Shown one piece after another: positions 27,953-28,390 of a DNA stretch of 64,000 bases. Position 1 is the stretch's first letter. Each line of letters starts with the position of its first letter. A program made the position numbers and the translations under genes. The DNA comes from Escherichia coli. Its GTDB lineage: Bacteria; Pseudomonadota; Gammaproteobacteria; Enterobacterales; Enterobacteriaceae. The notes beneath the pieces are model-generated. The model saw only the letters and a program-made list of their open reading frames with translations. It was not told the origin of the DNA and ran no database searches. The DNA lies in NCBI RefSeq assembly GCF_001677475.2, contig NZ_CP015229.1. One strand, given 5' to 3'.

Positions 27953-27961
27953 GCAGAAAGT

Positions 27962-27987
27962 CAAAAGCCTCCGTCCGGAGGCTTTTG
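27962..27987. terminator. Bidirectional terminator between tonB and yciA
   Basis: Hairpin aaagcctccgtccggaggcttt immediately after the tonB stop and before the convergent yciA stop. Confidence 0.75.
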
Positions 27988-27991
27988 ATTA

Positions 27992-28390
27992 TTACTCAAC
28001 AGGTAAGGCGCGAGGTTTTCCTTCAGGATCAACCGCGACATACTTAAATAATGCTTCTGTCGCTTTATAGCGTTGCCCGATTGGTTCAGAGGCTACTTTT
28101 TTCACCCACACTTCAATATTAATGCTGACCGATGTCGTCCCTTTCTGGACACAGCGTGCATAGCAGCACACCACATCGCCGACCGCAACCGGCCGTAAGA
28201 AAGTCATTCCTTCAACCCGCACAGTCACTACGCGACCGTGGGCAATTTCTTTCGCCAGAATAGCGCCGCCAATATCCATTTGTGACATTAACCAACCACC
28301 AAAGATGTCACCATTGGCATTGGTATCGGCGGGCATGGCTAAAGTACGTAAAACAAGATCGCCCTGAGGGACGTTATGTGTTGTAGACAT
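27992..28390 (-). CDS. yciA: Acyl-CoA thioesterase, 132 aa
   Basis: Track ORF; hotdog-fold thioesterase; position. Confidence 0.88.
   Translation of the reverse strand: MSTTHNVPQGDLVLRTLAMPADTNANGDIFGGWLMSQMDIGGAILAKEIAHGRVVTVRVEGMTFLRPVAVGDVVCCYARCVQKGTTSVSINIEVWVKKVASEPIGQRYKATEALFKYVAVDPEGKPRALPVE

Follow-up and report, generated by a model that had tools for sequence, protein, structure and literature searches.

The hairpin between the convergent genes tonB and yciA has been a textbook example of a terminator since 1985 and is a standard synthetic-biology part, and genome-wide surveys have found it common for convergent E. coli genes to share a terminator. In K-12, tonB and P14 (yciA) share a two-way Rho-independent terminator, as reported by Postle & Good (1985, Cell 41:577, cited in PMC4824070). 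This terminator has been measured in vivo, where its extended (nested) form is stronger than the minimal core (Cambray et al., PMC3643576), and passages of PMC4824070 and PMC12207403 describe A-tracts as a hallmark of bidirectional terminators. Two further elements have a like architecture at other loci and with other sequences: the Tn10 tetA/orfL terminator (Schollmeier et al. 1985) and the 'hypersymmetric' terminator (EMBO J 1992, as cited in PMC4824070), each an A-run, GC hairpin and T-run working both ways. The genome-wide bidirectional terminators of Ju, Li & Liu (2019, SEnd-seq, Nat Microbiol 4:1907) and Wang et al. (2022; 10.1101/2022.10.23.513370) likewise consist of one hairpin where convergent genes meet, and the 3′ ends overlap. 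Their authors stress elements that are unlike intrinsic terminators and need polymerase collisions, whereas the hairpins at tonB/yciA, oppF/yciU and sohB/yciN in the DNA analyzed here resemble canonical intrinsic terminators on both strands.

The stretch that we analyzed, hereafter the window, is 64 kb of E. coli chromosome extending from narG to pdeR, with genes annotated by BLAST transfer from NZ_CP081706 and K-12 MG1655. A 4-kb query around the tonB/yciA site has matches in 5,422 of 5,426 complete E. coli genomes, with identity reaching 99.3% in the best. The site shares its locus, its genes and its 39-nt gap length with the K-12 terminator of Postle & Good (1985). The gap, on which tonB (+) and yciA (−) converge, reads GCAGAAAGTCAAAAGCCTCCGTCCGGAGGCTTTTGATTA in full and contains a 32-nt near-perfect palindrome, AGTCAAAAGCCTCCG-TC-CGGAGGCTTTTGATT, which very probably constitutes one intrinsic (Rho-independent) terminator working both ways. 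Its anatomy, folding statistics, enrichment and cross-genus covariation were computed here, and two-way termination is taken from the literature. The features of the locus are as follows, with the coordinates of the core defined by hand:

27233–27952, + strand: tonB CDS, an ORF, stop codon included, with 99.6% identity to the annotated tonB of NZ_CP081706

27953–27966, − strand: U-rich tail of yciA transcripts, UUUUGACUUUCUGC on the − strand (T-score 3.51)

27959–27990, both strands: extended palindrome, the probable shared terminator hairpin, with a stem of 14 bp on the + RNA and 12 bp on the − RNA

27967–27982, both strands: GC-rich core stem-loop, GCCTCC-GTCC-GGAGGC, −10.4 kcal/mol on its own; its stems covary across genera

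27983–27991, + strand: U-rich tail of tonB transcripts, UUUUGAUUA, which is also the A-tract template for the opposite strand (T-score 3.73)

27992–28390, − strand: yciA (acyl-CoA thioesterase) CDS, from an ORF and annotation transfer, convergent with tonB; its stop codon is at 27992–27994

The core is flanked by AAAA (27963–27966) and TTTT (27983–27986), and the hairpin lies 6 nt from the tonB stop codon and 1 nt from that of yciA. Its minimum free energies of −22.2 kcal/mol (+) and −19.8 kcal/mol (−) correspond to z-scores of −6.7 and −5.3, and 200 dinucleotide shuffles yielded no fold as stable. The original prediction, which was made from the sequence and described a single GC-rich hairpin with A-run and T-run flanks, is thus borne out at this site. 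The first eight nucleotides after the core include six U residues on the + strand (UUUUGAUU) and five on the − strand (UUUUGACU). The U tracts are short, with four U residues followed by GA; the trp attenuator and the topA terminator, also in the window, have longer ones (T-scores of 5.13 and 4.84, respectively). The site thereby combines the sequence features of an intrinsic terminator, a stable GC-rich stem-loop near a stop codon with an adjoining U-rich tract, with those of a bidirectional one, convergent units and an upstream A-tract that mirrors the U-tract.

A polymerase coming from tonB would transcribe AAAA-GCCUCC-loop-GGAGGC-UUUUGAUUA, and one coming from yciA would transcribe the reverse complement, AAAA-GCCUCC-loop-GGAGGC-UUUUGACUUUCU, which has the same RNA layout because the sequence is palindromic. 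The GC-rich hairpin would fold in the RNA exit channel at the moment when the active site holds a weak rU:dA hybrid, and release of the RNA would follow within the U tract. The A-run, dispensable in one direction, would be the template for the U tract of the other direction and could also lengthen the stem through A–U pairing. Because each direction would end in its own U tract, the tonB and yciA mRNAs would overlap, each ending ~30 nt inside the other, with the 39-nt gap serving both genes.

The gap is identical to that of K-12 at 37 of 39 bases. The loop is GTCC in the window and GACC in K-12, and a change in the outer pair from GACT in K-12 to GATT in the window converts a G–C pair to G–U on the + RNA and to an A–C mismatch on the − RNA. 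Neither difference would be expected to affect function. The stems of the oppF/yciU, yciY/kch, ompW/yciE, sohB/yciN and acnA/ribA hairpins are identical in K-12 and the window, as are the entire gap sequences of sohB/yciN and yciY/kch, and the hns hairpin differs from K-12 by one loop base.

A low-stringency terminator scan rose only weakly above background (28–31 found versus ~18–20 expected per 16 kb); because it failed to detect the galU terminator and called tonB/yciA on a single strand, we used a custom hairpin census that required a perfect stem of at least 7 bp and a ΔG of at most −13 kcal/mol, with 30 dinucleotide shuffles as background. The window contains 31 such strong hairpins, compared with 8.8 ± 3.3 in shuffles, and 20 remain at a ΔG of at most −16 kcal/mol, compared with 2.4 ± 1.1. 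Thirteen of the 31 fall inside the 11 convergent gaps, which total 1,111 nt and would be expected to hold ~0.15 by chance, and every one of the 11 gaps has at least one strong hairpin.

Strong hairpins also occur within coding sequences, in yciQ (40968–40996), cls (23971–23992), narJ (3817–3838) and rssB (8837–8865). That in yciQ has a perfect 13-bp stem and a folding energy of ~−20 kcal/mol, and none of the four has a good U tract. In K-12, a Rho termination region has been mapped internal to yciQ at 1325258 (Adams et al. 2021, PMC7815308).

The hairpins in and around the other convergent junctions of the window are listed below.

5183–5200, + strand: narI/tyrT hairpin, one-directional by sequence

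10732–10759, + strand: galU's own terminator hairpin, followed by a T7 run (T-scores 5.05 on +, 2.72 on −)

10804–10828, − strand: hns's own terminator hairpin, separate from that of galU and the site of the primary hns 3′ end in K-12 Term-seq (PMC7815308)

22920–22943, both strands: oppF/yciU shared hairpin, with symmetric A/T flanks (T-scores 3.69/3.41)

25112–25132, both strands: yciY/kch shared hairpin, with a U tract on neither strand

30817–30837, − strand: ompW/yciE hairpin, with a U tract on the yciE strand only (T-scores 0.33 on +, 2.41 on −)

43891–43910, both strands: hairpin just past rluB, at the left edge of an islet described below (T-scores 3.07 on +, 4.04 on −)

45402–45432, both strands: hairpin between islet ORF2 and cobO/btuR, −20.4/−17.3 kcal/mol, mediocre on both strands (T-scores 2.76/1.96)

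48058–48083, both strands: sohB/yciN shared hairpin, symmetric (T-scores 3.73/3.59)

56185–56221, both strands: acnA/ribA hairpin, with a 13-bp stem and an 11-nt loop but no A/T runs (T-scores 0.48/0.39)

60661–60686, both strands: yciH/osmB hairpin, 5 nt past the yciH stop codon and 94 nt past that of osmB, with a good U tract on the − (osmB) strand only (T-scores 2.68 on +, 4.33 on −)

Symmetric flanks, with five or six U residues in the first eight nucleotides after the core on both strands, are found only at tonB/yciA, oppF/yciU and sohB/yciN. The oppF/yciU and sohB/yciN hairpins would thus be built like that of tonB/yciA, and the remaining convergent junctions would be served by hairpins that are asymmetric, that lack U tracts or that occur as two separate elements, as in the tdk/adhE gap, which holds two hairpins and not one shared. 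The original prediction had extended the A-run/hairpin/T-run arrangement to a list of further junctions, and the hairpins that it placed at oppF/yciU, sohB/yciN, acnA/ribA, yciH/osmB and ORF2/btuR are indeed located there. The recurrence of the arrangement is upheld at the three symmetric sites but does not extend to acnA/ribA, which lacks the runs, or to yciH/osmB, which is asymmetric. ORF2/btuR, described as having the same architecture, does have a hairpin, but an asymmetric one with mediocre U tracts on both strands, and galU/hns, described as sharing one hairpin, has two separate ones. The list was accurate in its locations but omitted yciY/kch, ompW/yciE, tdk/adhE and narI/tyrT.

The further claim, that these hairpins act as bidirectional terminators, is experimentally established for tonB/yciA (Postle & Good 1985, as cited in PMC4824070) and agrees, for sohB/yciN, with K-12 Term-seq 3′ ends on both strands (PMC7815308). 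As a general statement it is too broad: oppF/yciU fits it by sequence, but acnA/ribA is not a canonical intrinsic terminator because U tracts are missing on both strands, and yciH/osmB looks, by sequence, efficient in the osmB direction only.

The ORF2/btuR hairpin belongs to a 1.57-kb islet (43872–45437) with 36% GC, compared with 49% for the whole window. In K-12 and in strain AH04, the closest complete genome, rluB and cobO/btuR are separated by a 39-nt gap with its own hairpin, ATGCCGGACGTCATATCCGGCAT, which in K-12 is the mapped rluB 3′ end (Term-seq, PMC7815308); the window has the islet instead. The islet is bounded by hairpins of its own, at 43891–43910 and 45402–45432, the first of which differs from the K-12 rluB/btuR hairpin. 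It encodes two ORFs:

44041–45063, + strand: islet ORF1, 340 aa, a putative lipoprotein (lipobox LSGC)

45073–45381, + strand: islet ORF2, 102 aa

Neither ORF has a match in Pfam, NCBIfam or PADLOC, and both are annotated elsewhere in E. coli as hypothetical proteins. Among 5,426 complete E. coli genomes, the number with the islet lies between 813, when at least 80% of it must be covered, and 1,237 (~15–23%).

The window also differs from its relatives at several other places. It lacks the ISZ′ remnant that K-12 MG1655 carries between tdk and adhE (at 12487–12788), the K-12 IS5 between ychE and oppA (at 16589–17325) and the IS1 and IS5 copies of AH04 in yciE/yciF and near cysB. At the tyrT locus (5347–5965, −), a single tRNA-Tyr gene is followed by three RtT repeats, where the AH04 annotation shows two tRNA-Tyr genes and two RtT copies:

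5347–5478, 5525–5656 and 5703–5834, − strand: RtT repeats (Rfam RF00391)

A full-length match to the enterobacterial sRNA family STnc180 (Rfam RF02079; 193 bits) at 53171–53374 (+) overlaps the small ORF ymiC, upstream of acnA.

We examined the conservation of the tonB/yciA junction by scanning one genome per species (100,044 species) with the back-translated TonB C-terminal motif WRYEPGKPG. The scan yielded 60 loci, with yciA convergent to tonB in 35. In 30 of these 35, from ~15 enterobacterial genera that include Escherichia, Enterobacter, Lelliottia, Leclercia, Kosakonia, Phytobacter, Siccibacter, Franconibacter, Atlantibacter, Citrobacter, Huaxiibacter and Pseudenterobacter, the genes are separated by a 26–68-nt gap with a single hairpin. 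The core stems vary by lineage (GCCTCC, CTCCC, CCTCCC, GCACGCC) with pairing kept, and 29 of the 30 junctions have at least four A residues before and at least four T residues after the GC core, within 8 nt. In an alignment of 27 sequences, 94% of cells are paired and compensatory changes on both sides occur at 10 of 15 pairs, counts that are biased towards structure because the sequences were trimmed around hairpins picked by folding. None of 500 shuffles matches this covariation, and sliding the partners by 1–3 columns lowers pairing to 44–67%. A stronger fact than the covariation is that essentially every short tonB/yciA gap has such a hairpin with both tracts. Selection thus appears to act on the flanking tracts and on pairing, not on the sequence of the stem.

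At oppF/yciU, located in other genomes from the yciU side only, the A-run/hairpin/T-run arrangement recurs with different stems in ~11 of the 20 other enterobacterial loci that reach that far; the remaining loci have GC-rich hairpins without A/T runs.

The scan also recovered other configurations of the tonB region. In four Erwinia loci the tonB/yciA gap measures 49–148 nt and its hairpins are large and GC-rich but lack A/T runs, and a Tenebrionibacter locus has a 487-nt gap with GC-rich hairpins, again without the runs. In the E. albertii representative, yciA was not found within 700 nt downstream of tonB. At 12 loci, from Klebsiella, Raoultella, Pluralibacter, Yokenella and others, TonB belongs to a second group with a C terminus ending in ...FRLKGVxxN and has no yciA downstream; this group apparently represents a tonB paralogue or a tonB at another place.

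Published K-12 3′-end maps bear on several of these junctions. At sohB/yciN, Term-seq placed 3′ ends on both strands, at K-12 1330415 (+) and 1330384 (−) (Adams et al. 2021, PMC7815308), corresponding to window positions 48086 (+) and 48055 (−); the two ends are separated by 31 nt, and each lies 3 nt inside its U tract. At yciY/kch, 3′ ends were likewise mapped on both strands, at 1308992 (+) and 1308963 (−), and at ompW/yciE on the − strand only (PMC7815308). Tables for the three conditions of that study list no 3′ ends for tonB, yciA, yciU or osmB, and the K-12 tables list none at the acnA/ribA junction. The missing ends at tonB/yciA and oppF/yciU may reflect low expression and thresholding, but they do not speak in favour of termination there.

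The overlapping 3′ ends at sohB/yciN and yciY/kch resemble those of the Ju and Wang elements. We weighed whether the hairpins act mainly as pause sites for head-on RNA polymerases, with release needing collision and trailing polymerases. As an account of these hairpins we consider this possible but unlikely. The Liu laboratory reported hundreds of bidirectional terminators between convergent E. coli genes that are unlike intrinsic ones and Rho-independent (10.1101/2022.10.23.513370), and within the window the yciY/kch and acnA/ribA hairpins are strong despite having no U tract on either strand, with yciY/kch still showing its two K-12 3′ ends. However, tonB/yciA, oppF/yciU and sohB/yciN do carry U tracts on both strands, and a pure pause-and-collide signal would not need the A/T runs that are kept in 29 of the 30 tonB/yciA junctions. 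The title of the 1985 tonB paper, moreover, calls the terminator rho-independent (Postle & Good). Collision deserves serious consideration where U tracts are lacking (yciY/kch and acnA/ribA) but is not needed to explain the symmetric hairpins.

Intrinsic termination at the hairpins would, in our reading, be incomplete, with Rho as a backstop. Adams et al. mapped bicyclomycin-sensitive Rho regions in K-12 within the antisense of yciU, kch, yciA, yciE, btuR and ribA (+ strand) and, on the − strand, within the antisense of galU, rluB and sohB (PMC7815308). The region at K-12 1311968 (+) lies ~120 nt into antisense yciA, with Rho scores that use 800-nt windows and so indicate read-through without measuring it (PMC7815308). 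Because Rho regions adjoin most junctions, inside the partner antisense, these data suggest that some transcription passes the hairpins and is then stopped by Rho inside the partner gene, so that hairpin termination is probably leaky. The hairpins start 1–14 nt from stop codons, and in work on tR2 (PMC4824070) the terminating ribosome was shown to repress terminators located a few bp past a gene. By analogy, this nearness may let terminating ribosomes lower the efficiency of the hairpins.

The same Rho regions, lying just beyond most junctions, could instead mean that Rho ends transcription further downstream and that 3′-to-5′ exonucleases trim the RNAs back to the hairpins, which would then be 3′-end stabilizers. 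Rho-terminated RNAs are processed by 3′–5′ exonucleases (Adams et al., PMC7815308), and for the hairpins that lack U tracts (yciY/kch, acnA/ribA and the + strand of ompW/yciE) trimming is a better fit than intrinsic termination. We nevertheless judge this explanation improbable, since it leaves unexplained both the conserved A/T runs around the tonB/yciA core and the mapping of the sohB/yciN 3′ ends to the U tracts, 3 nt in on either strand, and since the tonB terminator works in heterologous reporter constructs (PMC3643576). A last possibility is that the palindromes act at the DNA level, as an operator bound by a protein, a recombination site or a mobile repeat of the REP type, and are not RNA signals. 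In its favour, they are intergenic inverted repeats, perfect or nearly so, and a REP-like palindrome is present past narI. We nevertheless consider it extremely unlikely, given that the 13 gap hairpins have no common sequence, that compensatory stem replacement across genera is the opposite of what a sequence-specific binding site would show, that the sites always adjoin stop codons and that no hairpin site matches an Rfam family.

No sequence is shared among the 13 gap hairpins or with other parts of the window, non-self matches being at most 15 nt long with E values of at least 0.047. We rejected REP/BIME or another intergenic repeat family on the same grounds, with no hairpin-to-hairpin or window match beyond chance and no Rfam family. 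The recurring feature is an architecture, not a repeat element. Just past the narI terminator, at ~5225–5280, lies an imperfect palindrome, GTCGGATGCGCTTCGCTTATCCGAC ... GACCTACAGGGGAGGATATTGTAGGTC, which we take to resemble REP-type intergenic repeats.

Bidirectional intrinsic termination at the palindrome remains our preferred reading for tonB/yciA. The tonB/yciA terminator was already known, and the similar hairpins elsewhere in the window are ordinary documented gene-end signals. We also considered whether the ~30-nt complementary 3′ ends at tonB/yciA, sohB/yciN and yciY/kch pair in trans and couple mRNA stability or expression (for example, through RNase III), or whether yciY/kch and acnA/ribA are collision-dependent and tuned by transcription of the partner gene. 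We regard this as a speculative and quite improbable extension; if true, trans-pairing or collision dependence would make these junctions regulatory and not mere punctuation. The useful result is a narrower scope for the symmetric design, which is present at only three of the 11 convergent junctions in the window, and published data suggest that Rho backs up most of the convergent junctions.
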